Shown: positions 8,764 through 50,340 of the stretch, in pieces | Layout: the number at the start of each line of letters is the position of its first letter | How positions within the stretch are numbered: position 1 is the stretch's first letter | NCBI GenBank assembly: GCA_963677885.1 | Contig: OY782500.1 | Coordinates: 5,098,136 to 5,162,135 of the forward strand | Reading direction: 5' to 3' | From: Vallitaleaceae bacterium | GTDB lineage: Bacteria > Bacillota > Clostridia > Lachnospirales > Vallitaleaceae | Length of the DNA: 64,000 bases | The notes under the pieces: generated by a model | Databases searched by the model: none | Seen by the model: the letters and a program-made list of their open reading frames with translations, nothing else | What the model was told of the DNA's origin: nothing | Position numbers and translations under genes: made by a program

Positions 8764-8912
8764 GGGGGTCCTGGCTTGCCCGGGTCCAGGGCACTTGGCA
8801 CCCGGTCGGTGATTCCCAAATTTGGACATATCCCCATTATGGAGATATGACCATACCAAATTCGTGAGTCAAGGCCCAGATGCCAAGACCCAGGACCCAG
8901 ACAAGCCAGTCG
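8764..8912 (-). repeat. GC-rich hairpin repeat element, copy 5 (minus orientation)
   Basis: The minus strand reads GGCCTTGACTCACGAATTTGG ... CCAAATTTGGGAATCACCGACCGGGTGCC, matching the core of the other copies. Terminal arms GTCCTGGCTTGCCCGGGTCC... and ...GGACCCAGACAAGCCAGTC are mutually complementary. Local GC is far above the flanking sequence. Confidence 0.5.
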
Positions 8913-9130: not shown

Positions 9131-9275
9131 GACAGGGGGCTGGTCCTTAGGACCTGGTGGTTGGGCTTTGATTCACGAATGTGGTTAGTAGACTTCCCAA
9201 TTAAACAATCTCTCAGCCACATTTGGGTATCACTCGCCCGACCAATAGGTGCCTAAGGACCGGCTCCCGTCCCTC
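9131..9275 (+). repeat. GC-rich hairpin repeat element, copy 1
   Basis: Core GGGCTTTGATTCACGAATGTGG ... CCACATTTGGGTATCACTCGCCCG. Terminal stem GGGGGCTGGTCCTTAGGACC pairs with GGTGCCTAAGGACCGGCTCCCGTCCC. Confidence 0.6.
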
Positions 9276-9379
9276 ATATCACAAGAACGGAAAAAGTTAT
9301 TGACAATGATTCTTCATTAGAATATAATTAGGTTAAGCCTAACTAATTAATTTAAGTTAGAAAAAGTAACAGGCAGGAA

Positions 9380-13666: not shown

Positions 13667-13719
13667 TGGTGTTTGGAGAGTTATGTAGTATGAATTAAGA
13701 AGGAATATGTTTATATAGG

Positions 13720-13866
13720 GACGGCAGGCAGGCTGCATATCCTATCTCGCGGGCAGGTGCCCCACGAATGCGATGAGATCATCTCTAAAGAGATGATGTT
13801 TGACGCATTCGTGACTCAAAAGCCCACGAGACAGGACAAGCAACCCACCTGCCTGTTGTTATATAA
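13720..13866 (-). repeat. GC-rich hairpin repeat element, copy 4 (minus orientation, diverged)
   Basis: The minus strand reads GGGCTTTTGAGTCACGAATGCG ... CATTCGTGGGGCACCTGCCCG, matching the family core. It holds an internal palindrome, CACGAATGCG...CGCATTCGTG. It lies about 50 nt after the hom stop. Confidence 0.5.
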
Positions 13867-14085: not shown

Positions 14086-14257
14086 GACTCCGATTTGTAA
14101 TACACAAGGTGTGGGCTTAGGGTCTTGCTGGCTGGGCTTTGATGCACGAATGTGTTAAGGTTTATCTCATTTGAGTAAACATGAGTCACATTTGGGCATC
14201 ACTCGCCCTGCCAGTAAGAGCCCTAGGCCCGCACCTGTCCCCATTACAAATCGGAAT
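14086..14257 (+). repeat. GC-rich hairpin repeat element, copy 2; its 3' arm overlaps the stop codon of the EAL-HDOD gene
   Basis: Core GGGCTTTGATGCACGAATGTG ... CATTTGGGCATCACTCGCCCTG. Stem GGTGTGGGCTTAGGGTCTTGCTGG pairs with CCAGTAAGAGCCCTAGGCCCGCACC. An outer perfect 11-bp inverted repeat, CGATTTGTAAT/ATTACAAATCG, contains the TAA (revcomp TTA at 14244-14246) of the convergent gene. Confidence 0.6.
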
Positions 14258-17053: not shown

Positions 17054-18289
17054 ATGTATTCTTTTGACGAAGTCAAGCAATTTGATCCAGAATTGGCGGT
17101 TGCTATTGACTCTGAAATCAATCGTCAGCGAACTAATATTGAGCTGATTGCATCAGAAAACTTTGTATCTAAAGCAGTCATGGCTGCTATGGGAAGTCCT
17201 TTAACCAATAAATATGCAGAAGGCTATCCAGGGAGAAGATATTATGGCGGTTGTGAAAAAGTAGATATCGCCGAAGATTTGGCCAGAGACAGAGCGAAAG
17301 AAATTTTTGGTGCTGATCACGCAAATGTACAACCACACTCAGGTGCCCAGGCTAACATGGCTGTATGCCTTGCAGTCCTTAAACCTGGTGATAAAATAAT
17401 GGGAATGAACCTGTCCCATGGTGGTCACTTAACCCATGGTAGCCCAGTTAACTTTAGTGGTTTGACATATGAAATCGTTCCTTATGGCGTTAATAAAGAA
17501 GGGTACATTGATTACGAAGAGTTAATGACTATTGCACTTGAAGAAAAGCCAAAGCTGATTATTGCTGGTGCAAGTGCTTATGCCCGTACAATAGATTTTG
17601 CAAAATTCAGAGAAGTAGCCGATGCAGTGGGAGCTTACCTTATGGTGGATATGGCCCACATAGCCGGACTTATTGCAGCTGGTTTGCATCCAAACCCAGT
17701 TCCTTATTCTGATTTTGTAACAACTACTACTCACAAGACCCTTAGAGGCCCTCGTGGCGGTATGATTCTCTGTAAAGCAGAACATGCCAAAAAAATCGAC
17801 AAAGCGGTTTTCCCTGGAACTCAAGGTGGACCACTTATGCATATTATCGCAGCTAAGGCGGTTAATTTCAAAGAAGTGCTTAGTGATGAATTTAAAAGCT
17901 ACCAACAGCAAGTCATCAATAATGCACAAGCTTTGGCAGAAGCCCTTCAGAAACGTGGTATAGACATCGTATCCGGCGGTACTGACAACCACTTAATGCT
18001 TCTGGATCTTAGAAGCCTAAATCTTACCGGTAAAGTTGCAGAGAAACTTCTAGATGAGGTTCATGTAACCTGTAACAAGAATACCATTCCTTTTGACCCT
18101 GAAAGTCCTTTTGTAACAAGCGGTATCCGTTTAGGAACACCTGCTGTAACAACAAGAGGTATGGTCGAAGCAGACATGGATACAATCGCTGAGATTATTC
18201 ACCTGGCTTTAACTGACTTTGACAATAACAAAGAAAAAGCTATTGCCATGGTTGAGGAACTGGTTGCAAAATATCCTTTATACGCTTAA
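17054..18289 (+). CDS. glyA: serine hydroxymethyltransferase
   Basis: 411 aa with the SHMT PLP motif [14 protein letters not shown]. The upstream promoter has an extended -10, TGCTATAAT. Confidence 0.95.
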
Positions 18290-18294
18290 TACTT

Positions 18295-18325
18295 AAGTCT
18301 GTCAGTTTACTGGCAGACTTTTTCA
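18295..18325 (+). terminator. intrinsic terminator after glyA
   Basis: AAGTCTGTCAGTTTACTGGCAGACTT hairpin plus TTTTC. Confidence 0.6.
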
Positions 18326-18462
18326 TTATCAAACCTGTCACCTTTGTAGGTGACAAATTTCTTGAACAAATGATGCCTAGAGCCCTGCTTACCGGGACGG
18401 GAAAGACCAGGGTGTGATATAATACTCTTGACACGTCAATTGAATAACTATGGGGGTAGTTT

Positions 18463-20436
18463 ATGATTGAGAAAACTATATTAGATAATCTTAAGTATTT
18501 GGAACTCTTAAGCAAACAATTTCCAACTATTCACGAAGCTTCTACGGAAATCATTAACCTGGAGGCTATTCTTAACCTTCCAAAAGGTACCGAACATTTT
18601 CTGTCTGATGTTCATGGTGAAGATGAGGCTTTTCTGCACATTGTCAAAAGTGGATCCGGTATCGTTAGAAAGAAAATCGATGATGTCTTCGGAGCCACCA
18701 TTACCAATGCAGAAAAAAGAAAACTGGCAACCCTCATCTATTATCCCAAGGAAGTCCTTAACCGGGTAGGCAAAAAACTAAATGTAGATGAGGAAGAGGA
18801 GAAAGACTGGTATGAGGTGACTCTACACCGGCTTATACTTGTCCTCAGAGAAGTATCCTCCAAATATACCAGGTCCAAAGTTCGTAAGGCCTTGCCAGGA
18901 GAATTTGAATACATTATTGAAGAACTTCTCCATCAGAGAGATAAGGATCCTGATAAAGACCATTACTACAATCAGGTCATATCATCCATTATTGAGATTC
19001 GAAGAGCCAATCCTTTTATCATTGCCATTAGCGAGGTTATCCAGCAGCTGGCTGTTGACCATCTCCACTTGATTGGTGATATCTATGACAGAGGACCTAA
19101 TCCGGATAAAATCATGGACAAGTTAATGGATTACCATTCCCTGGATATTCAGTGGGGGAATCACGACGTGGTCTGGATGGGAGCGGCAGCAGGTTCTGAA
19201 ATCTGTATTTTGAATGTCATTCGAATCTGTGCCAGATATGGTCAGTTGGATATACTGGAAGAAAACTACGGTATTAATCTTTTGTCCATCGCAAGATTTG
19301 CGATGGATCATTATAAAAATATTGAGAAACAGTTTTATCCAAAAACCGATCATTTGATGAGTGATGAAAGCCTCTTGCATGCCCAGATAAACAAGGCCGT
19401 CTCTCTTATGCTCTTTAAAATGGAAGAGGTGGTTTCCGACCGTAATCCTATTTTTCATTTGTCCGATAGGAAGATGTTGTCAAAAGTGGATTTTGTTACT
19501 AACTCGGTTGAAATCAATGGGGTTCAACACCGCCTGATGATTAATGACTGGGGAACGGTCTTTAAGGAGAGGCCGACTCAATTGACTGATGAGGAAAATC
19601 AGGTGATTACCAAGCTTCAGTATTCCTTCCTCAACAATGTCAGACTCCAACAGCATGTTGCCTTTCTTTTTGAGAAGGGTAGTATATACAAGGCATATAA
19701 CGGAAACCTTTTATATCATGGGTGTATCCCCCTCAATGAAGATGGGTCCTACACGGAATTGCCATTTGAAGGTGAACTTTATTCCGGTAAAGCCTTATTG
19801 GATTATTATGAACAGCGTATCCGGCAGATTTACGCCAAGCGGGAATCCATTACAGAGGAAAAGGAAAGAGACTTCTTCTGGTTCCTATGGTCGGGTGCCA
19901 ATTCGTCCTTGTTTGGCAAGACGGCTATGAAAACCTTTGAAAGACTTTTAATCGGTGATAAGGATACCCATGTGGAAGGAAAGAATCCTTATTACAAGTA
20001 TATTTTACAGGAAGATGTCTGTAAGAAAATATTAAAGGACTTCAATCTTAACCCGGATCATGGCAGAATTATCAATGGACATGTACCGGTAAAGGTCAAA
20101 AAAGGCGAGAAACCCGTAAAGTCCGGAGGCCGTTTAATCGTCATTGATGGAGGCCTTTCAAAGGCTTACCAGGATGTGACCGGTATTGCAGGATATACCT
20201 TTATCTTTAATTCCCATGGTATGCTCCTTGCAGCCCATGAGCCCTTTACCTCTGCCGATGATGCCATCAGCAACAATGTGGATATGATTTCAGAACTGTC
20301 CATTGTTGAACATGCAAGCTCAAGAATTTTAGTCGGAGATACGGATATCGGTAGAAAGCTTGCAAGAGATATTGAAGACCTAAAACTCCTTGTAAGTGCC
20401 TACAGATTAGGATTTATTAAAACTTTATTATATTAG
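18463..20436 (+). CDS. fbp: fructose-1,6-bisphosphatase class 3
   Basis: 657 aa. The N-terminus MIEKTILDNLKYLELLSKQFP and the metallophosphatase core (GDIYDRGP, GNHD) are typical of Firmicutes class III FBPase. Confidence 0.9.
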   Translation: MIEKTILDNLKYLELLSKQFPTIHEASTEIINLEAILNLPKGTEHFLSDVHGEDEAFLHIVKSGSGIVRKKIDDVFGATITNAEKRKLATLIYYPKEVLNRVGKKLNVDEEEEKDWYEVTLHRLILVLREVSSKYTRSKVRKALPGEFEYIIEELLHQRDKDPDKDHYYNQVISSIIEIRRANPFIIAISEVIQQLAVDHLHLIGDIYDRGPNPDKIMDKLMDYHSLDIQWGNHDVVWMGAAAGSEICILNVIRICARYGQLDILEENYGINLLSIARFAMDHYKNIEKQFYPKTDHLMSDESLLHAQINKAVSLMLFKMEEVVSDRNPIFHLSDRKMLSKVDFVTNSVEINGVQHRLMINDWGTVFKERPTQLTDEENQVITKLQYSFLNNVRLQQHVAFLFEKGSIYKAYNGNLLYHGCIPLNEDGSYTELPFEGELYSGKALLDYYEQRIRQIYAKRESITEEKERDFFWFLWSGANSSLFGKTAMKTFERLLIGDKDTHVEGKNPYYKYILQEDVCKKILKDFNLNPDHGRIINGHVPVKVKKGEKPVKSGGRLIVIDGGLSKAYQDVTGIAGYTFIFNSHGMLLAAHEPFTSADDAISNNVDMISELSIVEHASSRILVGDTDIGRKLARDIEDLKLLVSAYRLGFIKTLLY

Positions 20437-20541
20437 GACCAAATAGTGGACAAGGACCCTCCTGTATGGTAATTTAGGTATACATTAAGGTTAAAATTTT
20501 ATTGCCAGAAATGGCTTGTATATAGGAAAGAGGTCGTTTTT

Positions 20542-22917
20542 ATGAAATGTTCGGTTTGCCACGAGAACACAGCTGTTGTTTTTGTGACTAAGATGGTTGA
20601 CAACAAGCCTGAGCGCATGGGACTATGTCTCCCGTGTGCCAGTAAACAGGGACTAAGCCCCTTGGATCAGATGATGCAGCAGAGCGGCATGAACCCTGGT
20701 GATTTTGAGAATATTAACAAGCAGATGATGGAGATGTTCGAAGATCCGTCTATTAGTGATTCTATTAATCAGTTTATGGAACAAATGTCAGGCGGAAGCC
20801 CGGTGTTTGGAGCCTTTGCAGGTCATGAACCTGAAGATGCCACCTTTGACCAAGAGGACGAAGACAGTGAAGAAATGTCTAAGATACCGGATGAAAAAAT
20901 TCCTGGTACAGAGGATGATGACAAGAAAATAGACAAGGAAAATCCTTTTAGTCAATTATTTGGCGGCAAACAGACTAAGGTTAAGCCAAAACCTTCCAAG
21001 AACAAGCGAAAGAACCTGGATACTTTTGGTATAAATCTTAGCGACAAAGCTAAAAACGGTGAAGTAGACAGGATTATTGGACGCCACAGAGAAATTGACA
21101 GGGTTATCCAAATCCTCAACCGCCGACAAAAAAACAATCCGGTTCTTATTGGTGAGCCTGGTGTTGGTAAAACGGCAATAGCCGAAGGTTTAGCTGTCAG
21201 AATTTATGAAGGTCAGGTTCCTGTCAAACTTCTGGATGCGGAAGTCTATCTTCTTGATTTGACAGCCCTTGTTGCCGGAACCCAGTTTAGGGGACAGTTT
21301 GAAGGACGGATGAAGGGCATTATCAATGAAGCCAAGTCCAGTGGTAATATTATACTGGTAATTGATGAAGTCCATAACATAGCCGGTGCCGGTGAAGCTG
21401 AAAGTGGGGCAATGAACGCAGCTAATATCTTAAAGCCTGCCCTTGCAAGAGGAGATGTTCAGATTATTGGTGCCACAACCCTGGATGAGTACCGTAAACA
21501 TATTGAGAAAGACTCGGCTCTGGAAAGACGCTTCCAACCGGTTCTTGTTGACGAGCCAAGTGTGGAGGAATCCATTGAAATCATCAAAGGCATCAAAGAC
21601 TACTATGAAGACTATCACAGGGTCATTATTTCTGATGATATCATTGCATTGGCTGTCAACATGAGTGAACGCTATATTCATGACCGTTTCCTGCCAGATA
21701 AGGCTATAGACGTTATTGATGAGGCCGGTTCAAGAGCCAATCTCAAAAATATGGGACTGGTTGAACTGGAAGCCCTTAGAAGTCAGTTGAGTAAAATCGT
21801 CGCTGAAAAAGAAGCAGCAGCAGCCATTGATGATTATGAAAAGGCGGCAGATTGCAGGGTTAGAGAGCTAAAGGTTACCGATAAGATCAAGAACCTGGAA
21901 ATTCAATGTGAAAATGTCCATATTAAGGAAGAAGACATTGCCTATGTCATCGAAGCCTGGACCAATATTCCGGTTCAATCCATTAAGGAAGATGAAAAAG
22001 AAAAACTGATCCAATTAGAAAGACGTCTGTCAAGACGGGTAAAAGGACAGGACCATGCTATTGAACTACTGGCCAAATCCATCCGTCGTAACCGGTCAGG
22101 ATTTAAGAAGAAGAATAAACCGTCATCCTTTATCTTCGTAGGACCTACTGGTGTAGGTAAGACCGAGCTCTCCAAAGCCTTAACTGAAATTCTCTTCGGT
22201 AACGAAGAAGCCATGATTCGTTTTGATATGAGTGAGTACATGGAAAAGCACACCGTATCCAAACTTATTGGAGCTCCTCCTGGATATGTGGGCTATGATC
22301 AGGCTGGACAGTTAACCGAACGGGTTCGAAGACGTCCCTATTCAGTAATCTTACTGGATGAAATCGAAAAAGCCCATCAAGACGTTTACAACCTTCTGCT
22401 TCAAATTCTGGAAGATGGAAGATTAACAGACAGTCAAGGCAGGGTAGTTAACTTTGAGAATACGGTGATCATTATGACTTCCAATGCTGGGACTACAACC
22501 AAGTCCAACAGCATCGGTTATAACAACGATACCAAAACAGCCGGCCAAAATCACGTCAAGGATGCCCTTAAACAATTCTTTAGACCGGAGTTCCTTAATC
22601 GGGTTGATGAAACTGTCATCTTTAACTCCTTAGACAGAGAAATTCTTCATGAGATCGTCGAAGTAATGCTTCGTGAAGTTATTCTTATGGGTAAGGAAAA
22701 GCACATGGATATTATGGTGGCGTCTGAAGTAAAGGACTACTTAGTCAATATAGGCTACGACGACAAATTCGGAGCCAGACCTCTTAGAAGGGCTATTGGA
22801 CGCTATATAGAAGATGAAATTGCTGAGCAGTATATTCATGGAACTATCCAGGACGGAGACAGGGTTGAGGTTTCTATGGATGGTGATAGGGTTTTTGTTT
22901 CTAAGATTGAGCAATAG
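20542..22917 (+). CDS. clpE: ATP-dependent Clp protease ATP-binding subunit, ClpE-like (N-terminal zinc ribbon, two AAA+ modules)
   Basis: N-terminal CxxC...CxxC zinc finger (MKCSVCHENTAVV...CLPCA). Two Walker A motifs (GEPGVGKTA, GPTGVGKTE) and a ClpB-D2-small C-terminus. Confidence 0.85.
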   Translation: MKCSVCHENTAVVFVTKMVDNKPERMGLCLPCASKQGLSPLDQMMQQSGMNPGDFENINKQMMEMFEDPSISDSINQFMEQMSGGSPVFGAFAGHEPEDATFDQEDEDSEEMSKIPDEKIPGTEDDDKKIDKENPFSQLFGGKQTKVKPKPSKNKRKNLDTFGINLSDKAKNGEVDRIIGRHREIDRVIQILNRRQKNNPVLIGEPGVGKTAIAEGLAVRIYEGQVPVKLLDAEVYLLDLTALVAGTQFRGQFEGRMKGIINEAKSSGNIILVIDEVHNIAGAGEAESGAMNAANILKPALARGDVQIIGATTLDEYRKHIEKDSALERRFQPVLVDEPSVEESIEIIKGIKDYYEDYHRVIISDDIIALAVNMSERYIHDRFLPDKAIDVIDEAGSRANLKNMGLVELEALRSQLSKIVAEKEAAAAIDDYEKAADCRVRELKVTDKIKNLEIQCENVHIKEEDIAYVIEAWTNIPVQSIKEDEKEKLIQLERRLSRRVKGQDHAIELLAKSIRRNRSGFKKKNKPSSFIFVGPTGVGKTELSKALTEILFGNEEAMIRFDMSEYMEKHTVSKLIGAPPGYVGYDQAGQLTERVRRRPYSVILLDEIEKAHQDVYNLLLQILEDGRLTDSQGRVVNFENTVIIMTSNAGTTTKSNSIGYNNDTKTAGQNHVKDALKQFFRPEFLNRVDETVIFNSLDREILHEIVEVMLREVILMGKEKHMDIMVASEVKDYLVNIGYDDKFGARPLRRAIGRYIEDEIAEQYIHGTIQDGDRVEVSMDGDRVFVSKIEQ

Positions 22918-22946
22918 ATTAGTAATTCAATACCATTTAATAAAAA

Positions 22947-22988
22947 TGCCTCTTGCACTAATTCTTTTTAGTGTAGGAGGCTTTTCAT
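22947..22988 (+). terminator. intrinsic terminator after clpE
   Basis: GCCTCTTGCACTA...TAGTGTAGGAGGC imperfect hairpin followed by TTTTCATT. Confidence 0.5.
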
Positions 22989-23029
22989 TATGTTTGGGTT
23001 ATTTATGGGAGTATCAAATTAGAGTTGAA

Positions 23030-23093
23030 ATATAGAGCTAGTCACTCCGCCCTTGCGCACTTCGTGAAGCCGGTCTGAGCAACTAGCTCTATA
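23030..23093. repeat. perfect 13-bp inverted repeat (ATATAGAGCTAGT / ACTAGCTCTATAT) flanking a 38-bp GC-rich spacer
   Basis: Read directly from the sequence. It sits at the boundary between clpE and the low-GC islet. Confidence 0.5.
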
Positions 23094-23407
23094 TTTCTGC
23101 TTAACTGGATATGCATAAAATTATAAATTATTGATAAGTTTACATATATAGAGTTAGAAGAAGTGATTTCTAGATATAGTATATAAGTTTTACAAACATA
23201 TACCTTACACAACCAAGAAGCTTAGCAAAAACCATAGAATAATCATAAACGCCTTAGAAATGCAAGATCCTTCAAGGTTCACAATTTTCTATAACTTCCT
23301 GACACTTCTCAGAACTCCATAGGTCTCTCCAGAAATCTTCAAAACGCTAAAATCTCCCACTTCCATTCATGACCCCCAACACAAACCACCCACTACATCA
23401 ATATATG

Positions 23408-23600
23408 ACACAAGGTGTAGGCCTAGGGTCTTGCTGGTTGGGCTTTGGCTCACGAATGCCTCTTGCATTGCTGTATCATTGTTCCTAACCCAGGCATTTG
23501 GGATCCACTCGCCCGACTAGTAAGAGCCCTAGGCCTTGCACCTGTCCGTTATACATTGAATGTCACCCTAGGCCTGCACCTGTCCGTTATAAATCGATTG
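23408..23600 (+). repeat. GC-rich hairpin repeat element, copy 3 (with a 26-bp internal direct duplication of its 3' arm)
   Basis: Core GGGCTTTGGCTCACGAATGCC ... CATTTGGGATCCACTCGCCCGACTAGTAAGAGCCCTAGGCC. The 5' arm ACACAAGGTGTAGGCCTAGGGTCTTGCTGG is nearly identical to copy 2. The 3' arm CTAGGCC(T)TGCACCTGTCCGTTATA occurs twice (23531-23556 and 23567-23592). It ends 8 nt before the stop of the convergent gene. Confidence 0.6.
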
Positions 23601-23602
23601 TA

Positions 23603-24424
23603 TTATTTGTTGTATATTCGAATTTGTTCGTCGAAGGAAACTAAGTTTATAAGATAGTCAGGTAGCTTTATAGAAGTGTAATAGTATTCAGCTTCCTCCT
23701 TACTAATAGCCTCAATATAATTTTTGGAATAATTCTTATCGGGACTTACATACCTTAGCATAAAGTCTACAGCCTTATTATAGGCTATAGCAGCTTTGTG
23801 GATGGATTTGTAGTGGCCGATGGTTACATAACCCTTAAGATGGATTTTGGCCTTGTAAACGAAGGATCCCTTGTGGACAACCTGTTCAACACCAAGGTAG
23901 GGGTTACGGATTTTAATGTTTTCATATCTGAAATTGTTTCGATTACCGTCAATAAAGAGATAATCTTTGCCATAGGAGGCGTAATTCCGGATACCGTAGC
24001 GGGACAGTATATTGGTTTGCATACCGTAGTCATTGACAAAAAGGTAGTTACCCTTGGCGAAAATCTTGTGGGAGGAGTAGAAGAATAGGTCATCAACATC
24101 AAAGATTAGGATCCTGTCCTGGTCCATATGATAGGTGAAATAGTTTTTGGACAGGTAAATAGGGGTCTTGAAATAAAGACCATTGTCCCGGAAGTTCATG
24201 ATGATCACCCATTTTTCATAGTCCATGGACTGGTCCGTATTCATATAGTCATCCAGTTTATAGAGTTTGCGGTCTAAGACCTTCTTAGCCAGTTTATAAC
24301 AGTTTTCTGCAATATTCCGGTCAGAGGATGAGCCTAGGCTGATATGACGGCCCTTATGTGTGATGGAAACCCTGTAGTAGACGTCTCCATTTTTTTTCTT
24401 TGTTTGATAGATACCTTTAGCCAT
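23603..24424 (-). CDS. AP2-domain / HNH_3-like putative homing-type endonuclease (AP2 - HNH-like - AP2 architecture)
   Basis: N-terminal GIYQTKKKNGDVYYRVSITHKGRHISLGSSSDRNIAENCYKLA fits the AP2/integrase-arm pattern (YRV...KGK.I.LG.F...E.A..AY). The central IDGNRNNFRYENIKIRN resembles the HNH_3 motif (HIDGN..NN...NL), but the usual His before IDGN is Phe. A second AP2-like segment is VYKAKIHLKGYVTIGHYKSIHKAAIAYNKAV. The locus has low GC. Confidence 0.55.
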   Translation of the reverse strand: MAKGIYQTKKKNGDVYYRVSITHKGRHISLGSSSDRNIAENCYKLAKKVLDRKLYKLDDYMNTDQSMDYEKWVIIMNFRDNGLYFKTPIYLSKNYFTYHMDQDRILIFDVDDLFFYSSHKIFAKGNYLFVNDYGMQTNILSRYGIRNYASYGKDYLFIDGNRNNFRYENIKIRNPYLGVEQVVHKGSFVYKAKIHLKGYVTIGHYKSIHKAAIAYNKAVDFMLRYVSPDKNYSKNYIEAISKEEAEYYYTSIKLPDYLINLVSFDEQIRIYNK

Positions 24425-24663
24425 TTAGAATCCAATCTCTTACAAATTATTTAATATTTTCTTCATTATACCATTTTCGTATAAAAAAAGGGAGACAAGA
24501 TCTTCCAAATTTCCTATTGGGCAAAATGAATAAAAAATTGCAGAGCCCAAAAAAATGCATAAAAAAACATCATAGGTGTGTTACTTGCTATTGTTTTTGC
24601 CTAAAAAATATGAATAAATAGTCTGAAAACTTTTTAAACTTAACAAAGAGCCGGCATTTCCAT

Positions 24664-24692
24664 TGACTGAATATCTGGATGTAGTATAATAG
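24664..24692 (+). promoter_or_regulatory. strong sigma-A promoter (TTGACT, 17-nt spacer, TATAAT)
   Basis: TTGACTGAATATCTGGATGTAGTATAAT, about 100 nt upstream of the SleB-like gene. Confidence 0.5.
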
Positions 24693-24791
24693 CAAAGACT
24701 TCAAAAAACGGCTATTTTGGACGGCCTTTTTTGGAGTCTTAATTTTTGGTTTGCTACGTGCCAAATAATGTAGTGGATGAAAGGACAAGAC

Positions 24792-25655
24792 ATGAATTTT
24801 TTTAAAAAGTTATTTGAGTTTTTGTTTCACAAAGATCATATAATATCTAAAAAAGTTTATACCTTTGGTGCCGTTGTCGTTACTACCTGTATCGTTAGCG
24901 CTATGATTCTTGGAGCCAATGGATATGCTTCGAGTATGTATAATGATGCTGCTGAAAAAGAGCAGGACATCATCGCTAATGAAGAAGAAATGAAAGAACT
25001 GGAAGTCATGGAGACTGAGGAAGAGGACCTGGTTTCACAGGAATTGCTCCTGTCTGATAATGATTACAGTCGATATGAAAGTGGTTACTGGAAAGATTAT
25101 GTAGACACTTTGGTTTCATCTTCAAACTCGCAGGCGGATAAAAAGACCTTGGCAATAGGACAAGACAAGAATCTTAGTCTTAGCACCTCCGGTAGAGACA
25201 GTGAAGATGGATACGTTACAATTACATCCGCAGATGTTGATGTGACACCAAATCGTGATCCAATTACAATATCTGATTCAGATTATCAAGTATTATTAAC
25301 AATTGTTGAGGCAGAAGTAGGTACAGAGGACCTCTATACCCGTATGATGATTGCCAATACAATTATCAACAGAATGTTACATGACTACTATCCTGATACT
25401 ATTGAAGACGTAGTATTTCAAAATGATGGTAAAGTTTATCAGTTTTCACCAATCCTAGATGGAAGATATTGGGAAGTGGCTGTTTCAAAGAAAACAATCG
25501 AGGCTGTTAACAATGCACTTGCAGGTTACGATAACAGTCAAGGGGCTCTGGCCTTTGTTAACCGTGAAATCACACACCCTGATATTATGCAATGGTTTGA
25601 TAATAACCTGATTTTTGTTACCAAATATGGTAAAGTAGAGTATTTTAGATTTTAA
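24792..25655 (+). CDS. membrane-anchored cell-wall hydrolase, SleB-like (Hydrolase_2) C-terminal domain
   Basis: N-terminal TM helix (VYTFGAVVVTTCIVSAMILGA). The C-terminal region LLTIVEAEVGTEDLYTRMMIANTIINRM...VFQNDGKVYQFSPI...ALAFVN is typical of the SleB cortex-lytic hydrolase domain. Start chosen at ATG 24792 (RBS AAAGGA). Confidence 0.6.
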   Translation: MNFFKKLFEFLFHKDHIISKKVYTFGAVVVTTCIVSAMILGANGYASSMYNDAAEKEQDIIANEEEMKELEVMETEEEDLVSQELLLSDNDYSRYESGYWKDYVDTLVSSSNSQADKKTLAIGQDKNLSLSTSGRDSEDGYVTITSADVDVTPNRDPITISDSDYQVLLTIVEAEVGTEDLYTRMMIANTIINRMLHDYYPDTIEDVVFQNDGKVYQFSPILDGRYWEVAVSKKTIEAVNNALAGYDNSQGALAFVNREITHPDIMQWFDNNLIFVTKYGKVEYFRF

Positions 25656-25976
25656 TAGATCCATTTGCAATCGTAAGAACTGTCGTATAAACTTAGGTTT
25701 ATCTTCAGTTCTTTTTTCTTAAGAAAGAAATTGCTGAAAAAGCAGACAATTCCAGTGGAGCAAGAAGAACAATTCGCCAAGCTTTTGATCTTGAATGTGT
25801 TTGTGTGAAAAACAATTGTTTTCCTGTGGAATATATGTTATACTTTCTCAAAGGTCAGGAAATGACGATTTACCTATAAAGTTTACCTGGCAGATTGAAG
25901 AGTAATGATACACTCTTATATAGTAGGAAATTTGAAATCTGAAAGGAGGAAGTGGTGCTGCTGCATCACATCTAAC

Positions 25977-27464
25977 ATGGAGAAATTACATTATAACAGT
26001 ACAAGAGGACAAGAAGTCGGTCTTACTGCATCTCAGGCTATAGTAAAAGGTCTTGCAAGTGATGGCGGTCTCTTTGTTCCTTCCTATATACCAACAGCAG
26101 ATTTTGATTTTGAAAGTTTGAAGGATAAAAGTTACCAGGAGATTGCCTGCCAGGTGCTGGGACTTTTTCTGGATGATTTTACAGAGGATGAGATTAAGCA
26201 CTGCGTTTACAGCGCTTATGACAGCAAGTTTGATGACCAGGCAATTGCTCCTTTAGTAAAAAAAGGTGATCACTATTATTTGGAACTATTCCATGGCTCG
26301 ACCATTGCCTTTAAAGATATGGCCCTTTCCATATTGCCTTATCTGATGACCACATCAGCCAAAAAGCAGGGGATTACCAAAGACATTGTTATTTTAACAG
26401 CTACATCCGGAGATACAGGCAAGGCTGCCCTTGCAGGTTTTGGTGATGTAGAAGGGACTAAGATCATCGTCTTCTATCCAAAATCAGGTGTTTCCAAGAT
26501 TCAGGAAAGACAGATGATCACCAGTGAAGGTGCCAATACCCATGTTGTCGGTATTACCGGCAACTTCGATGATGCCCAAACAGGTGTGAAAGAGATTTTT
26601 AACGACAAGGCTTTCAACGACAGGTTGGCTGATATGGGCTGTCAGTTGTCCAGCGCTAATTCAATCAATATCGGAAGACTTCTACCACAAGTGGTTTACT
26701 ATGTCTATACCTATTCCAGATTAGTGAAAGAGGGACAAGTAACGAATGGTCAGCCTATGAATGTTGTCGTTCCAACAGGTAATTTCGGTAATATCCTTGC
26801 TGCCTATTATGCAAAAAGAATCGGTACGCCTATTAACCAGCTTGTATGTGCCAGCAACGATAACAAGGTCCTTTTTGACTTTTTTGAAACAGGTACTTAT
26901 GATAGAAGAAGAGATTTTATATTGACTATCTCTCCAAGTATGGATATTCTGATTTCCAGTAATCTGGAACGTTTGATATATGAAATTGCCGGAGAAAATC
27001 CGGATATGGTTAACCACTTGATGGATAAATTGAAGTCTGAAGGTATGTATACCATCACTGCAGATATGAAAAATGAGTTGGTTGATTTTCATCCTGGTTT
27101 TGCCAGTCATGAGGATACTCTGGCAGCAATCGCAAAAGAGTTTTCAGAAAGCTCCTATATGATTGACCCTCATACAGCTGTTGCCAAAGCCGCTTTTGAC
27201 AGTTATACTAATAAGAGAGATGACTTGTCTCCGACAGTAATCGTATCCACAGCCAGTCCTTACAAGTTCACCAAGTCCACTTTGTTGGCCATTGATGCAA
27301 AATATGGGGACATGGATGATTTTGACTTGCTTCATGAACTGGAGAAGATGACCCATGTGGAGATTCCGGCTGCTGTGAAAGATATTGACAAGCGTCCGAT
27401 ATTACATAATACAATATGTGACAAGGAAGATATGCCACAAGTGGTTCTGGATTTCCTGTCATAA
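25977..27464 (+). CDS. thrC: threonine synthase
   Basis: MEKLHYNSTRGQ...GGLFVP N-terminus typical of ThrC, with a PLP lysine region (TIAFKDMALS). About 495 aa from ATG 25977; the track ORF starts 24 codons earlier with no support. Confidence 0.9.
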   Translation: MEKLHYNSTRGQEVGLTASQAIVKGLASDGGLFVPSYIPTADFDFESLKDKSYQEIACQVLGLFLDDFTEDEIKHCVYSAYDSKFDDQAIAPLVKKGDHYYLELFHGSTIAFKDMALSILPYLMTTSAKKQGITKDIVILTATSGDTGKAALAGFGDVEGTKIIVFYPKSGVSKIQERQMITSEGANTHVVGITGNFDDAQTGVKEIFNDKAFNDRLADMGCQLSSANSINIGRLLPQVVYYVYTYSRLVKEGQVTNGQPMNVVVPTGNFGNILAAYYAKRIGTPINQLVCASNDNKVLFDFFETGTYDRRRDFILTISPSMDILISSNLERLIYEIAGENPDMVNHLMDKLKSEGMYTITADMKNELVDFHPGFASHEDTLAAIAKEFSESSYMIDPHTAVAKAAFDSYTNKRDDLSPTVIVSTASPYKFTKSTLLAIDAKYGDMDDFDLLHELEKMTHVEIPAAVKDIDKRPILHNTICDKEDMPQVVLDFLS

Positions 27465-27478
27465 GAAGGAGCAGATTC

Positions 27479-28009
27479 ATGGATGGATTTAAGGGTAGAC
27501 GTAAAGAAGTACCTTATAACCGTATGCTAAAAGATGCACTGGCCCAGGTACCAAAAGGTGCATTCCTTACTGTTAAGAAAAATGGTGAGGTTAACACCAT
27601 GACCATCGGTTGGGCAACCTCTGGGGTTATGTGGGGTAGAAATGTTTTTGTAATTGGTGTGAGGCCAAGTCGATATACATATGGACTGATTGATATGGGA
27701 GATGCTTTTACCATAAGTGTTCCGGTCAATCAACAGTTAAAGAAGCAGATTGGCTACGTTGGCAGTCGCTCAGGCAGGAATGTCGATAAATTTGAAGAAT
27801 CCGGTTTGACACCAGTTCAAGGTATGGAAGTTGATGTACCTATTATAGGAGAATGTGGCTTACACTTTGAATGTAAGGTAATTGCCAAACATCAATTGGA
27901 TCCTGATTTTATTGATGAAGTTATTAAGAACAGACATTATCCTGAAGGTGATTTCCATATGATATTCTATGGAGAAATCCTCAAAAGCTATAAGATTATG
28001 GAAGACTAA
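27479..28009 (+). CDS. flavin reductase-like (FMN-binding split-barrel) domain protein
   Basis: 176 aa. Pattern LTVKKNGEVNTMTIGWATSG...FVIGVRPSRYTYGLI is typical of the flavin reductase / flavoredoxin family. Confidence 0.55.
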   Translation: MDGFKGRRKEVPYNRMLKDALAQVPKGAFLTVKKNGEVNTMTIGWATSGVMWGRNVFVIGVRPSRYTYGLIDMGDAFTISVPVNQQLKKQIGYVGSRSGRNVDKFEESGLTPVQGMEVDVPIIGECGLHFECKVIAKHQLDPDFIDEVIKNRHYPEGDFHMIFYGEILKSYKIMED

Positions 28010-28032
28010 AAGATCCTATGGATATCTTAATA

Positions 28033-28072
28033 AAGAGCTGATATACCACTAGCTGGTATGTCAGCTCTTTCT
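28033..28072. terminator. bidirectional hairpin terminator between convergent genes
   Basis: AGAGCTGATATACCACTAGCTGGTATGTCAGCTCT palindrome with A/T runs on both sides. Confidence 0.5.
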
Positions 28073-28093
28073 ACGTTCATGTTTAAATTGGTC

Positions 28094-28984
28094 TTATTTA
28101 AGATAATTTTTCTGGGGATGAATCTGGGTGGCGTTGAGATGAACAATAACATCGTTAACGGACTCATGTTCCATGAGAAGGTTCTTGACCTGCTCGCTGA
28201 TTTCGTGGCCTTCAAAGATGGAGATATTGCCGTCAACACTAATTTTGACCATAAGCAAAAAAGTAAGGCCAACAGGTTTGCTGGTGATGGTGTCAATATG
28301 ATCCACTCCCTTAACCTGACTGATCTTCTTGACCAATTCGTTTTTAATATCATCGTCCAGAGTTGTGTCCATAAGGACGTAATAGGCACTTGAGAAAATG
28401 GTAAAACCTGTATAAGCAATCCAAATACCAATCAGAAGACCTACAATAGCATCGACGACAAAAAGGTTGAAGTAACCGGTAATAATTGACATAAGGGTAA
28501 AGCTGGTAATAAAAACATCGTTTCTGTGATCTTCAGCATTGGCAAGGGCAAGCAGGGAGTTGTATCTATGGCCTATCTTATTACAATATATAAACAAGCT
28601 TGCCTTAACACCGATTGTAAAGAGAGCAACAATTAAAAGCCAATGGGAATAAATAAAGGTGGCCTGGAACCTAAGGGAGTCGATTGAGGACCGAACGATA
28701 TTGTAGGCTACGATAACCAGCGAAAAACTGATGATCATGGAAAAAATATACTCAGCTTTACCATGACCGTAAGGATGGTCGTGGTCAAAGGGCTCGTTGG
28801 AGATATGATTACCAATATAGGTCATAACCGAGGCGAATACATCTCCGGCACTGTTTAAGCCATCAGCAATCATAGCCTGACTTTTGCTGATAAAACCGAT
28901 GATGAGTTTTAAGATTAAGAGTATGATATTGAAGATGATGCCGAGGATGGCAACTCTTCGTATGGATTGATGTCGTATGTCCAT
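28094..28984 (-). CDS. cation diffusion facilitator family transporter (CzcD-like)
   Basis: 296 aa with 6 TM helices and a C-terminal cytoplasmic domain. CDF signature in TM2 (ADGLNSAGDVFAS) and a His-rich segment (DHDHPYGHGKAEY). Confidence 0.85.
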   Translation of the reverse strand: MDIRHQSIRRVAILGIIFNIILLILKLIIGFISKSQAMIADGLNSAGDVFASVMTYIGNHISNEPFDHDHPYGHGKAEYIFSMIISFSLVIVAYNIVRSSIDSLRFQATFIYSHWLLIVALFTIGVKASLFIYCNKIGHRYNSLLALANAEDHRNDVFITSFTLMSIITGYFNLFVVDAIVGLLIGIWIAYTGFTIFSSAYYVLMDTTLDDDIKNELVKKISQVKGVDHIDTITSKPVGLTFLLMVKISVDGNISIFEGHEISEQVKNLLMEHESVNDVIVHLNATQIHPQKNYLK

Positions 28985-29104
28985 GGTGGTCCTTTCTTCT
29001 CATTATATAGTTCATTATACATAAGTCTAAAAAATTGTTCAAATATGTTTGACACTCATATTTGCAAGTGATAAAATAGTAAGGTAATTAAAAAGTTTAT
29101 TATT

Positions 29105-29123
29105 TAACAATGATTATCAGTTA
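29105..29123. promoter_or_regulatory. candidate Fur/PerR-family operator (19-bp imperfect palindrome TAACAATGATTATCAGTTA) in the rubrerythrin promoter region
   Basis: It lies between a TTGACA-17-TAAAAT promoter (29051-29079) and the rbr RBS. PerR control of rubrerythrin in anaerobic Firmicutes is established knowledge; the site assignment here is inference. Confidence 0.4.
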
Positions 29124-29181
29124 CAAAGAAAGATTACAAATATTGTACGATGAATCATTGTAAAATGCAAGGAGGAAAGTA

Positions 29182-29766
29182 ATGAGTTTAAAAGGTACAA
29201 AAACTGCGGACAATTTAATGAAAGCTTTTGCAGGTGAATCACAAGCTAGAAATCGTTATACCTATTATGCATCAGTAGCTAAAAAAGAAGGTTATGTACA
29301 AATTTCTAACCTCTTCCAAGAAACAGCTGATAATGAAAAAGAACATGCTAAGCGTTTCTTCAAGTTTTTGAAGGAAGACCTTAATGGTGAAGTTCTCGAA
29401 ATCAATGGAGCTGGTTACCCTGTATCCTTAGGTGATACGGTATCCAACCTAAAAGCGGCTGCAGCTGGCGAGAATGAAGAATGGACTGAACTTTATCCTG
29501 CATTTGCTGCTACAGCAGACGAGGAAGGATTCCCAGCAGTAGCTGCAGCCTTCAGATTCATCGCTGAAGTAGAGAAACACCATGAAGAAAGATACTTAAA
29601 GCTTGCTGCTAATGTAGAAAAAGCTGAAGTATTCAAAAAGGGCGAAGAAGTATCCTGGAAATGTAACAACTGTGGTTATATTGCATTTGGTGTGGAAGCT
29701 CCAAAAGTATGCCCAGCTTGTGTGCATCCACAGGCTCACTTTGAACTTCTTTGTGACAATTTCTAA
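29182..29766 (+). CDS. rbr: rubrerythrin
   Basis: 194 aa with an N-terminal ferritin-like diiron domain (E..H motifs) and a C-terminal rubredoxin-like CxxC...CxxC (CNNCGY...CPAC). Confidence 0.9.
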
Positions 29767-47926: not shown

Positions 47927-47960
47927 CTAACCTCTAAAGCGAAAGCTTGATTGATATAAA

Positions 47961-47997
47961 AGGGAGTGGGTAAGTGTGCGACCCACTCTCTTTTGCT
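47961..47997 (+). terminator. intrinsic terminator after purL
   Basis: GGGAGTGGGTAAGTGTGCGACCCACTCTC plus TTTTGCTG. Confidence 0.6.
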
Positions 47998-48015
47998 GTC
48001 TGAAAATATTTTTTT

Positions 48016-48441
48016 GGGGGTCAAGTTACCGACTGTGGCCAGGCTGGCGCCTTAGGATGTCTTTCCGGTCGCGGTCAAGGCATTAAGTGGATCTAAGGGT
48101 CAGAGAATTGCCAAAAAGTTATAAGTTGGGCAAATATTGGGTGGGGGTCAAGTTACCGACTGTGACCAGGCTGGCGCCTTGGGATGTCTTTCCGGTCGCG
48201 GTCAAGGCATTAAGTGGATCTAAGGTTCAGAGAATTGCCAAAAAGTTATAACTTGAACAAATCTTGGGTTATGTAATTGAGAAGGGAAGGTTGTGAGCAA
48301 GTGTTCAAGTTGTTAAGGAAATTTCTGCAAGCAGAAATTGGATTATATTTTTGACAAAGCTCTGATCCTAAGATCCACTAAATACATGCCCAAAGCCCGG
48401 CAAGACACCCCAAGGCGCCAACCCGTCCACAGTCGCTAACT
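48016..48441. repeat. junction element R1: two tandem 127-bp units of arm A, the conserved core in reverse orientation, then an inverted A arm
   Basis: Unit A, GGGGGTCAAGTTACCGACTGTGGCCAGGCTGGCGCCTTAGGATGTCTTTCCGGTCGCGGTCAAGGCATTAAGTGGATCTAAGG(G/T)TCAGAGAATTGCCAAAAAGTTATAA, sits at 48016-48142 and 48143-48268. The core holds the palindrome TTTCTGCAAGCAGAAAT (48321-48337). The reverse-complement A arm is at 48363-48441. Confidence 0.7.
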
Positions 48442-48503
48442 TTCGGTTTCGCATTATGTCTTGACGGTTGGTCGTGTGTGTGGGAGTATCCGTATTAATT
48501 ATG

Positions 48504-48533
48504 TTGACAATAATCAAATGATAGATATACAAT
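48504..48533 (+). promoter_or_regulatory. sigma-A promoter for the first GNAT gene (TTGACA, 17-nt spacer, ATACAAT)
   Basis: Read from the sequence; about 25 nt upstream of the ATG. Confidence 0.45.
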
Positions 48534-48558
48534 TTTTTTGGGGAAGGAGCGAGATGTC

Positions 48559-49026
48559 ATGAGTGAGAATTTTTCTATTAGAGAAGATGATTTGACGAAC
48601 GATAGGGTTGTTGAGCTTGTTTTAGATCATAAGAAAGCTATGTTGGCTATTAGTCCCAAGGAGAGTGTCCATGCTTTGGATTTGGAGGAGCTTCGTAGTT
48701 CTGATATAAGTTTTTGGACCATTTGGGATGGCGATGCCTTGATGGGATGTGGAGATTTGAAGGCTTTAAATGAGCTGGAAGGTGAGATTAAGTCTATGAG
48801 AACCCATGTCTCCTATTTGAGACAGGGTATTGCAGGGAAAATGCTTGACCATATTATTAGGAATGCAAAGGCAAGAGGCTATAAAAGACTGTATTTGGAA
48901 ACGGGTTCCAGGGATGAATTTATTCCTGCTCACAAGTTATACGAGAAGTACGGCTTTTCTAATTGCGGTCCTTTCGCTGACTATGTAGAAGATGACCATT
49001 CCCGTTTTATGTATCTAGAACTCTAA
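48559..49026 (+). CDS. GNAT-family N-acetyltransferase
   Basis: About 155 aa with a GNAT acetyl-CoA motif region (LRQGIAGKMLDHIIRNAKARGYKRLYLET). Start chosen at ATG 48559 (RBS GGAAGGAG). Confidence 0.8.
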   Translation: MSENFSIREDDLTNDRVVELVLDHKKAMLAISPKESVHALDLEELRSSDISFWTIWDGDALMGCGDLKALNELEGEIKSMRTHVSYLRQGIAGKMLDHIIRNAKARGYKRLYLETGSRDEFIPAHKLYEKYGFSNCGPFADYVEDDHSRFMYLEL

Positions 49027-49040
49027 AAATAATATAGTAG

Positions 49041-49338
49041 GAGCAAGTTACCGGTCGTGGCTAGGCTGACGCCTTGAGGTGTCTTGCTGGGCTTTGGGCA
49101 TGTGTTTAGTGGACCTTGGATTCAGAGCTTTGTAAAAAATATATTCATATATCTGCTTGCAGAAATTACCCTGACAACTTGGGCACTTGCTCTCAGCAAC
49201 CTGACCTTAATAACTTACCCAAGATTTGCCCAAGTTATAACTTTTTTACAATTCTCTGAACCCTAGAGCCACTTAATACCTTGACCGCGACCAGAAAGAT
49301 ACCTCAAGGCGTCAGCCTTGCCATGACAGGTAACTGTC
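49041..49338. repeat. junction element R2: A arm, conserved core of about 120 bp, inverted full A arm (long hairpin, stem about 85 bp)
   Basis: The 5' arm is CAAGTTACCGGTCGTGGCTAGGCTGACGCCTTGAGGTGTCTTGCTGGGC...TTAGTGGACCTTGGATTCAGAGC. The core is ATATCTGCTTGCAGAAATTACC...CAACTTGGGCACTTGCTC...TTACCCAAGATTTGCCCAAGTTATAACTTTTTT. The 3' arm is the reverse complement of unit A. Confidence 0.7.
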
Positions 49339-49379
49339 AACCACAAAATGACCAAAGACTAATGTAACCAGGAGAGAAA

Positions 49380-49892: not shown

Positions 49893-49987
49893 TATTAAAT
49901 ATAATCCAATAGGCTATAGTCTGTATCCAAAACAAAAAGCCAATAACTAAAAGCCAACAACGTAAGGAATTTCCCATAACGAAACCG

Positions 49988-50340
49988 AAAGCTCAGGGAC
50001 AGAGACGGCCAGCCATGCCTTGTCACTTGGGTTTTGCACGCTATTTTAGTGAGACTTAGGTTGACGAAGGTGTCAAAAATATATTCAAGTTTCTGCTTGC
50101 AGAAACTACCTCAGCAACTTGGGCACTTGCTCACAGCTATCTGACTTAAATAATTTACCCAAGATTTGCCCAAGTTATAACTTTTTGGCACTTTCATCAA
50201 CCCTAGTCTCACTTAATAGATGTGCACTCCCAGGAGATAAGGCATGGCTGTGCGTCTCTGTCCTTGAGCTTGACAATCTTAATAGATGTGCACTCCCAGG
50301 AGACAAGGCTTGACTGGCCGTCTCTGTCCTTGAGCTTGAC
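49988..50340. repeat. junction element R3: B arm, the same conserved core, inverted B arm duplicated in tandem
   Basis: The 5' arm AGCTCAGGGACAGAGACGGCCAGCCATGCCTTGTC... The core is nearly identical to R2 (AAGTTTCTGCTTGCAGAAACTACC...CAACTTGGGCACTTGCTCACAGC...TTACCCAAGATTTGCCCAAGTTATAACTTTTTGGCA). The 3' arm AATAGATGTGCACTCCCAGGAGA(T/C)AAGGC...GTCTCTGTCCTTGAGCTTGAC occurs twice (50207-50273 and 50274-50340). Confidence 0.7.

Follow-up and report, generated by a model that had tools for sequence, protein, structure and literature searches.

The NUMOD4-HNH_3-AP2 homing endonucleases of phages, giant viruses and cyanobacteria are the HNH-AP2 homing endonuclease genes (HEGs) of Magnani et al. 2004 (cited in PMC10448857), among them the 'IPA-HNH' HEGs. 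DNA-binding domains of homing endonucleases have been reused as regulators in CapR of PLE satellites and in plant AP2 factors (PMC10448857), and in the CasPR anti-CRISPR silencers, which carry CapR and AP2 domains, AP2 is essential for site-specific binding and silencing (bioRxiv 10.64898/2026.02.23.707548). Here, we analyze a gene from a Vallitaleaceae bacterium (GenBank assembly GCA_963677885.1, contig OY782500.1), termed AP2L, that is located in the spacer region between clpE and a SleB-like hydrolase gene; we refer to the entire 64,000-nt stretch of DNA that was analyzed (GC content 0.403) as the window. A preliminary description of this interval had viewed AP2L as a freestanding homing endonuclease residing in a low-GC islet next to a hairpin repeat, and had taken this arrangement as a sign of mobility or of a recent horizontal insertion. 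Our data remove this false lead, as there is no mobile endonuclease islet at the locus: AP2L is an old, vertically inherited core gene of the Lachnospirales and is not mobile. With moderate confidence, we view its product as a domesticated and catalytically dead endonuclease descendant that serves as a chromosomal DNA-binding regulator.

The gene and the parts of its product that bear on this view are the following.

23603-24424, minus strand: AP2L gene, 273 amino acids plus stop codon, the only open reading frame (ORF) between clpE and the SleB-like gene
24272-24424, minus strand: N-terminal AP2-type domain, formed by residues 1-51 with three beta strands and a subsequent helix
23900-24271, minus strand: central domain, residues 52-175, containing the motif F-D-x-D-D-L-F-Y-Y-x-x-H-K-I at residues 108-121
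23909-23965, minus strand: HNH_3-like remnant DYLFIDGNRNNFRYENIKI, residues 154-172, with F157 at the position of the catalytic His
23747-23899, minus strand: C-terminal AP2-type domain, residues 176-226 (hhalign 95.8%)

This minus-strand ORF is real, with homologues found down to E 1e-163, and its product is arranged in the order AP2, helical linker, degenerate NUMOD4/HNH_3-like core, AP2 and C-terminal helices. AP2L shares homologous AP2 domains with the NUMOD4-HNH_3-AP2 endonucleases, finds its top whole-protein structural matches among them, and has in common with them a collinear core that includes the stretch x-I-[DN]-G-[ND]..[DN]-x-R-x-x-N-[IL]. It differs from these enzymes by an HNH_3 score below threshold, by the loss of the catalytic His (now Phe) and of the Asp adjacent to it, by the lack of the helix carrying the last metal ligand, and by an extra N-terminal AP2 domain. 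Moreover, while the NUMOD4-HNH_3-AP2 endonucleases are found sporadically in phages, introns and inteins, AP2L appears to be a single-copy, syntenic and vertically inherited chromosomal gene.

Searches with the single AP2L protein against Pfam, NCBIfam, PHROGs and PADLOC yielded almost nothing. The AP2 domains proposed in the preliminary description found no Pfam match in this way, and the sole Pfam match, HNH_3 (PF13392) at residues 157-170, is weak (13.1 bits, E 0.076) and falls below the curated cut-off of 24.8; PHROG_99, annotated as 'HNH endonuclease', matches residues 3-69 (E 0.015). Among 35 homologues, AP2 was the commonest weak Pfam match (11/35, best 6.4e-8) and HNH_3 the second commonest (9/35), with no homologue reaching E ≤ 0.01 for HNH_3. 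It is hence through the family profile and the homologues, not through AP2L alone, that the AP2 profile (PF00847) is recovered. The AP2L family profile detects the AP2 domain of the plant factor WRI1 with E 8.6e-6. When compared by hhalign with a profile of 25 aligned NUMOD4-HNH_3-AP2 endonucleases, which had been fetched with a consensus-like probe, the N-terminal domain matched their AP2 part with 97.8% (E 1.2e-12) and the C-terminal domain with 95.8% (E 7.8e-9); the two end domains of AP2L matched each other with 95.8%. Consistent with these matches, the AlphaFold2 model built with 35 homologues (predicted local distance difference test, pLDDT, 91.4; predicted template modelling score, pTM, 0.76) positions a three-stranded sheet and a helix at both ends of the protein (residues 5-51 and 179-226), and the predicted packing of an antiparallel sheet on a C-terminal helix is that of the AP2 fold. 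The assignment of both end domains as AP2 is thus solid.

The center of the protein is a different matter. Residues 52-178 align with the NUMOD4 and HNH_3 parts of the endonuclease profile over 99 collinear columns, and this match is weak (hhalign probability 3.3%, P 0.013); the control comparison of the central domain with the AP2 part gave P 0.44. In the collinear alignment, F-I-D-G-N..N-F-R-Y-E-N-I stands opposite H-I-x-G-x..D-N-R-V-E-N-L, and F157 is thereby placed opposite the catalytic His. The best whole-protein matches in the viral structure database BFVD are HNH or AP2 endonucleases (E to 6e-11, 250-290 columns). Their template modelling scores (TM-scores) are near 0.28, as is expected for flexible multi-domain proteins, and we found no convincing fold match for the central domain in the PDB. 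Taken by itself, the HNH_3 call for the core is not significant, yet it is plausible, and the architecture that we consider most probable for AP2L is AP2 - degenerate NUMOD4/HNH_3 - AP2. Hence, of the AP2 - HNH_3-like - AP2 reading given in the preliminary description, the AP2 ends are borne out by profile and structure, and the HNH_3 middle rests on a weak, collinear resemblance.

The replacement of the catalytic His in front of I-D-G-N by Phe, already pointed out in the preliminary description, is present in the segment DGNRNNFRYENI and concerns F157. That the protein may be inactive is strengthened by the finding that the loss is family-wide: among the 179 family members that were aligned, 167 have Phe at position 157, three each have Met and Tyr, and a single one has His. 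At position 156, the would-be metal-binding Asp of the D-H pair, mostly R, L, I or V are found across the family, and 167 of 177 members retain N169 (the N of N-L). The second AP2 domain begins, according to the model, where the HNH helix with the last metal ligand would sit. The active site of HNH_3 enzymes, a general-base His with metal ligands in a beta-beta-alpha-metal core, is consequently not present in the AP2L family. The structurally characterized I-HmuI (PDB 1U3E) offers a further comparison, as its stretch V-V-D-H-K-D-G-N..N-L resembles Y-L-F-I-D-G-N..N-I of AP2L. An hhalign comparison of the AP2L family profile with I-HmuI gave no significant match. The catalytic residues of I-HmuI, His75 as the general base and Asp74 and Asn96 as metal ligands, have no equivalents in AP2L. 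Judged from these sequence features, AP2L is probably the descendant of an endonuclease and without nuclease activity.

These data lend themselves to a model in which a homing endonuclease of the NUMOD4-HNH_3-AP2 type would have been the ancestor of AP2L. The descendant would have kept AP2 DNA-binding modules at each end and, of the nuclease core, no more than a degenerate scaffold, in which Phe takes the place of the general-base His, the neighboring metal-binding Asp position is variable, and the start of the second AP2 domain replaces the helix that would carry the last ligand. The AP2 domains known so far recognize specific double-stranded sites. We infer that AP2L binds double-stranded DNA in a sequence-specific manner without cleaving it and acts as a regulator, with the divergent SleB-like hydrolase gene, thrC and/or its own promoter as its likely targets; the rigid central domain might hold the two AP2 domains such that a bipartite site is read.

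A word-index search retrieved 4180 clusters of AP2L homologues at 90% identity, nearly all of 260-275 amino acids and most of about 265, and an exhaustive search retrieved only 280 clusters at 50% identity; the AP2L homologues constitute one compact family. Orthologues of about 265 amino acids are present in several hundred genomes of Lachnospiraceae and Vallitaleaceae. In a scan of GTDB species genomes, at least 575 AP2L stretches were confirmed, the best 80 of which stem from 80 different assemblies of Lachnospiraceae, Vallitaleaceae and unclassified Clostridia, and the closest among the matches listed is a Vallitaleaceae metagenome-assembled genome (MAG) with 92% identity. These homologues are unnamed, being annotated as 'hypothetical' or 'AP2/ERF domain-containing', there is no family-level Pfam or NCBIfam model for them, and our literature search found no publication on the family. 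AP2L thus represents an undescribed, well-conserved family of the Lachnospirales.

The genomic setting of this family is conserved. At 87 loci that we inspected, thrC is found within 3 kb of AP2L in 60 and a SleB-like gene in 52; both are almost always located upstream of AP2L and on the opposite strand, and in genomes without the SleB-like hydrolase (Butyrivibrio and others) thrC directly adjoins the AP2L gene. Pairwise distances between AP2L proteins follow those between the corresponding ThrC proteins (Mantel r 0.71, p ≤ 0.001, 64 genomes). The gene occupies the same site in a Vallitaleaceae MAG (loci L001 and L008; 92% identity), in locus L009 (64%), in a close relative represented by the Logan contig SRR22103804_77213 (L092; 97%), and in many others. 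Relative to L092, with which the window shares 91.7% nucleotide identity over 5.9 kb, the non-synonymous and synonymous divergences of AP2L (pN/pS) are 0.013/0.308, a ratio of about 0.04, and those of ClpE are 0.011/0.388, so that purifying selection on AP2L is comparable in strength to that on ClpE.

The AP2L gene of L092 deserves a separate comment. Codons ~9-13 of AP2L contain a run of eight A residues in gene orientation (24386-24393), and the L092 orthologue has seven, which results in a frameshift; the L092 gene is consequently called as a protein of 198 amino acids from an internal start. The shortened run could be a homopolymer assembly error, mark a pseudogene, or reflect phase variation.

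No plasmid-borne homologues of AP2L were found. The homologues labelled as phage are three UNVERIFIED scaffolds from human faeces ('Bacteriophage sp.'; MT837267, MT836856, MT837534), and MT837267.1 (L088) encodes leuC/leuD-type proteins of the aconitase family, a LysR regulator and leucyl-tRNA synthetase, from which we conclude that it is a fragment of a bacterial chromosome and not a phage. Carriage of AP2L by phages or plasmids was accordingly rejected, as no plasmid matched and the 'phage' record that we examined is bacterial.

The notion of an islet also rested on base composition and on the borders of the interval, which are formed by the following features.

20542-22917, plus strand: clpE, the upstream border of the interval
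22948-22981, plus strand: intrinsic terminator of clpE
24425-24776, AP2L / SleB-like gene intergenic region: AT-rich, 352 bp, with two divergent promoters
24777-25655, plus strand: SleB-like (Hydrolase_2) gene, followed by thrC

The GC content of the interval is 0.374 versus 0.403 for the window, and that of the gene itself is 0.389, with 0.50 at third codon positions (GC3). Since the 352-bp promoter region has a GC content of merely 0.304, it pulls down the average of the interval, to which the downstream spacer contributes with 0.39. The 'low-GC islet' hence dissolves, and profiling of GC content and codon usage against the window finds the composition of the gene normal. Its GC3 is the top value among 36 long ORFs of the window, as is its share of C-ending two-fold codons (0.55 versus a mean of 0.35, standard deviation 0.08), part of this excess being a general trend of minus-strand genes. 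Border hallmarks of an island (tRNA, integrase/transposase, direct repeats) are not present, the flanks being clpE and the SleB-like hydrolase gene, and a tRNA search found none in the region, including the segment 23098-23602.

A view of AP2L as a freestanding homing endonuclease that is active or has recently lost its activity, acquired with a low-GC islet and either self-mobilizing or acting on the hairpin repeat, would agree with a domain order like that of the HNH-AP2 homing endonucleases and with a position beside repeats that are missing from relatives. Speaking against it are a normal composition, conserved synteny across two families, co-divergence with ThrC, a pN/pS of 0.04, the family-wide absence of the catalytic His, the lack of genuine phage or plasmid copies, the absence of the repeat from 84 homologous loci, and the finding that relatives devoid of the repeat still carry the gene. 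Neither the absence from the same site in relatives and the deviating composition expected of an island nor the selfish distribution expected of HNH_3 homing endonucleases is seen for AP2L. We regard this explanation as extremely improbable; with respect to synteny, composition and distribution it is already refuted. The claims of the preliminary description for a freestanding homing endonuclease, and for mobility or recent horizontal insertion, are contradicted on these same grounds. A gene of normal composition that is kept in synteny is the very outcome that the preliminary description had named as its refutation.

Turning to the regulatory function of AP2L, we consider the region between AP2L and the SleB-like gene, in which two promoters can be recognized.

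24465-24473, minus strand: probable extended -10 of AP2L, TGGTATAAT, 41-49 nt upstream of the ATG
24663-24690, plus strand: sigma-70-type promoter of the SleB-like gene, TTGACT, 16-nt spacer, TATAAT, 11/12 matches

Of 83 upstream regions of orthologues, 36 have the motif TGnTAnAAT at about the same position, and it is kept in L001 and L009, as is the promoter of the SleB-like gene. Conserved divergent gene pairs that include a DNA-binding protein are reported usually to reflect regulation (Korbel et al. 2004). The divergent pairing of AP2L with the SleB-like gene and thrC has been kept, and it therefore suggests that AP2L regulates these genes and/or itself. A more detailed version of this model can be put forward only tentatively, and we rate its chances at somewhat below even: the AP2L family would be an AP2 transcription factor that arose from a homing endonuclease, uses its dead NUMOD4-HNH_3 core as a rigid spacer or dimerization module, and, in hundreds of Lachnospirales species from the gut and the environment, controls the divergently transcribed genes that encode a cell-wall hydrolase and threonine synthase.

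Several observations weigh against our view of AP2L as a catalytically dead regulator. In about a quarter of the loci, neither thrC nor the SleB-like gene is a neighbor of AP2L, and the synteny with thrC may simply be a kept ancestral gene order. A search for operators in the upstream regions by k-mer enrichment, -10-anchored alignment and three-species footprinting revealed no operator motif; apart from promoter elements and an A/T-rich block similar to an UP element, it recovered nothing. The frameshift in L092, unless it is an assembly error, points to a gene that can be dispensed with. Finally, the central domain contains the near-invariant motif F-D-x-D-D-L-F-Y-Y-x-x-H-K-I, whose acidic and His residues (D109, D111, D112, H119) could form a new catalytic or ligand-binding site.

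The last point leads to the proposal that AP2L is still an enzyme, a nuclease or another phosphoryl- or nucleotidyl-transferase, whose central site of D109, D111, D112, H119 and K120 would be targeted by the AP2 domains and serve in repair, recombination or defence. The near-invariance of FDxDDLFYYxxHK, D154, R142 and Q136, the lack of a close structural match for the central domain and the descent of the family from nucleases are in keeping with such a function. However, neither profiles nor folds match any catalytic family, there is no meaningful match to a defence-system model, the acidic residues are located on a predicted helix and strand edge where they could equally be structural, and the genomic context is one of housekeeping rather than of defence or repair. 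We consider an enzymatic function unlikely.

The failure to detect a conserved operator upstream would likewise fit a nucleic-acid binder that is not gene-specific, either a nucleoid-associated or architectural protein or a protein binding structured RNA or single-stranded DNA. Such a role would be served by two independent DNA-binding modules, and the highest GC3 and share of C-ending codons among the 36 ORFs may indicate good expression. It is at odds with the established specificity of AP2 domains for double-stranded sites, with the retention of the divergent arrangement relative to thrC and the SleB-like gene, and with the missing link between the gene and the hairpin repeat; we give it little credence.

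A chromosomal regulator derived from an endonuclease, as we propose for AP2L, would have counterparts in CapR and CasPR, in which an endonuclease-derived DNA-binding domain is also reused without cleavage. These proteins reside on mobile elements (satellites, prophages) and take part in conflicts between them, whereas AP2L is a core chromosomal gene with housekeeping neighbors and has no CapR domain. From plant AP2/ERF proteins (ERF1, TEM1 and the double-AP2 protein WRI1) AP2L differs by its bacterial origin and by a folded domain of 125 residues between the AP2 domains in place of a short linker, and sequence identity amounts to only about 20-27%. The domestication suggested for AP2L corresponds to the step by which plant AP2/ERF factors are postulated to have arisen. 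If correct, AP2L would cleanly exemplify the domestication of a homing endonuclease within bacteria, with a probable DNA-binding regulator as the outcome; it would be a chromosomal and vertically inherited parallel to the proposed plant AP2/ERF origin, and a new class of regulators in a dominant group of gut bacteria. The family is under strong purifying selection across the Lachnospiraceae, a dominant gut family.

Next to the promoter of the SleB-like gene, between it and the start codon, a hairpin is found on the plus strand (24695-24740; 18 bp, AAGACTTCAAAAAACGGC ... GCCTTTTTTGGAGTCTT, -20.6 kcal/mol, z -5.1) that precedes a U-rich run. Despite saturated synonymous sites, this hairpin is nearly unchanged in L001, and it may function as an attenuator in the leader or as an operator palindrome. 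Across 18200-29300, most intergenic DNA is far better conserved than synonymous sites: it is 82-91% identical to that of L001 with synonymous divergences (pS) of 0.67-0.82, and 96-99% identical to that of L092 with pS of 0.31-0.39. GC3 is about 0.26 in L001 and about 0.42 here. The SleB-like gene is an outlier with a pS of 0.31 versus L001 and 0.095 versus L092, which could stem from recent recombination or from constraint at the nucleotide level. An artificial recoding of the window, considered in view of the saturated synonymous sites relative to L001, was rejected, as divergence from L092 is ordinary and the base composition of L001 differs.

On the downstream side, AP2L and clpE are convergent, and the DNA between them has a history separate from that of the gene. 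Besides the clpE terminator, it contains the following features.

23027-23097, no strand assigned: stand-alone hairpin of 71 nt, its arms perfect over 16 bp and its loop of 39 nt partly paired
23098-23407, no strand assigned: non-coding spacer of about 310 nt, C-rich on the plus strand
23408-23551, plus strand: hairpin repeat copy 3, about 145 nt (covariance model R1, 141 bits)
23575-23601, plus strand: duplicated 3'-arm end of hairpin repeat copy 3, strain-specific, abutting the AP2L stop codon

The gap between the gene and clpE measures 685 bp in the window, 143-156 bp in L001 and L008, where it holds an ordinary bidirectional terminator, and 49 bp in L009; the 685-bp stretch does not align with any of these shorter gaps. 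L092 possesses the long version, with the 71-nt hairpin conserved at 98.6%, the spacer, as the least conserved segment, at 83.8%, and the 145-nt hairpin at 91%, the changes in the latter being concentrated in its loop. It follows from the gap lengths and the long version in L092 that the convergent spacer gained about 540 bp of non-coding DNA once this lineage had separated from that of L001, at a time when the gene was already present. The comparison with genomes lacking the insert that the preliminary description had called for thus confirms an insertion for the ~540 bp of non-coding DNA, which are missing in L001 and L009, and not for the gene, which these genomes have. In line with the preliminary description, the stretch to the left of the gene is non-coding, as no credible ORF is found in 23098-23602. 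Nothing similar to the spacer 23098-23407 is present in the rest of the window or among the loci retrieved.

The hairpin repeat in this insert, copy 3, is real, and so is its duplicated arm (23537-23563 / 23575-23601, 89% identity). The coordinates of these features, of the inverted repeat and of the ORF agree with those given previously to within one or a few bases. The earlier distance of 8 nt to the stop codon varies with the end point chosen for the repeat; the duplicate reaches to within 1-2 nt of the stop codon. The roughly 38-bp arm duplication (23554-23601) next to the stop codon is absent in L092 and is, because of its absence from this close relative, a recent event at the strain level. 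A covariance model detects four further copies.

8768-8909, minus strand: repeat copy
9131-9276, plus strand: repeat copy
13715-13858, minus strand: repeat copy
14102-14244, plus strand: repeat copy

All five copies lie within 15 kb, are intergenic and occur in both orientations; the repeat is an imperfect palindrome and GC-richer than the genome. At two loci, a minus- and a plus-strand copy are situated 220-245 nt apart; the spacers between them are unrelated, and the idea that these pairs are copies of one composite element was rejected on this ground. Compensatory changes are seen in 24 of 45 pairs across the five copies, and 85.8% of the repeat cells are paired versus 30-47% when the partners are slid. 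Sequence conservation is found in the upper stem, with TGGGCTTTGA..CACGAATG and CATTTGGG..CAC..GCCC. Every copy folds better by 15-20 kcal/mol on its own strand, for copy 3 with -76.9 kcal/mol on the plus versus -57.2 kcal/mol on the minus strand, a preference that is caused by G-U pairs. The repeat is hence a real, structured and lineage-specific element, which L092 has and which the orthologous sites of L001 and L009 lack.

Despite its position, the repeat has no connection with AP2L. The covariance model found no copy in 84 homologous loci (965 kb), the link between repeat and gene made in the preliminary description was rejected for this reason, and the position of the repeat beside AP2L is incidental. 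Neither the repeat nor the 71-nt hairpin matched any Rfam 15 family at the gathering threshold, with searches by E-value giving chance-level matches of the miRNA type. A pattern scan of JGI metagenomes for the repeat gave three chance matches that the covariance model rejected, and blastn of the repeat against plasmids and phages found none. With repetitive extragenic palindromic (REP) sequences and bacterial interspersed mosaic elements (BIME), enterobacterial repetitive intergenic consensus (ERIC) sequences and elements resembling miniature inverted-repeat transposable elements (MITE), the repeat shares several intergenic copies, both orientations, an imperfectly palindromic structure, a GC content above that of the genome, and presence or absence between relatives; it differs from them in belonging to no Rfam family, in its strand preference and in its compensatory changes at 24 of 45 pairs. 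No target-site duplication is obvious at the repeats, and no transposase was identified, although no search was aimed at one. It is our guess that the repeat is REP- or MITE-like and acts as a single strand; with its covariation and strand specificity, it stands as a separate element. An exact match of 13 nt (ATGCCTCTTGCA-type) connects the stem of the clpE terminator (22945-22957) with the apex of copy 3 (23455-23467); with E 0.016 in three spacers, it may be due to chance.

The 13-bp inverted repeat that had been regarded as the left border of the islet is genuine, and its perfect arms extend to 16 bp (23027-23042 / 23082-23097, core 23030-23042 / 23082-23094). It belongs to the 71-nt hairpin, which folds at -36 to -38 kcal/mol (z ~-6); this hairpin is self-contained and has no partner on the far side of the gene. 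Its site is absent in L001 and L009. The arms are AT-rich, and the loop holds CACTCCGCCC and CACTTCGTGAAGCC, which are like the two conserved boxes of the 145-nt hairpin in rearranged form; the 71-nt hairpin may accordingly be a degenerate relative of that family.

Elsewhere in the window, a mostly non-coding segment of about 2.4 kb (47930-50410) is dense in other large repeats: a tandem pair of 127 nt (48015-48269), a tandem pair of 66 nt (50212-50341) and several inverted repeats of 90-176 nt. They are unrelated to the 145-nt hairpin family, as the covariance model finds nothing there. Three T-box leaders (533-755, 51738-51984 and 60796-60969) are the sole Rfam families detected in the window at the gathering threshold.

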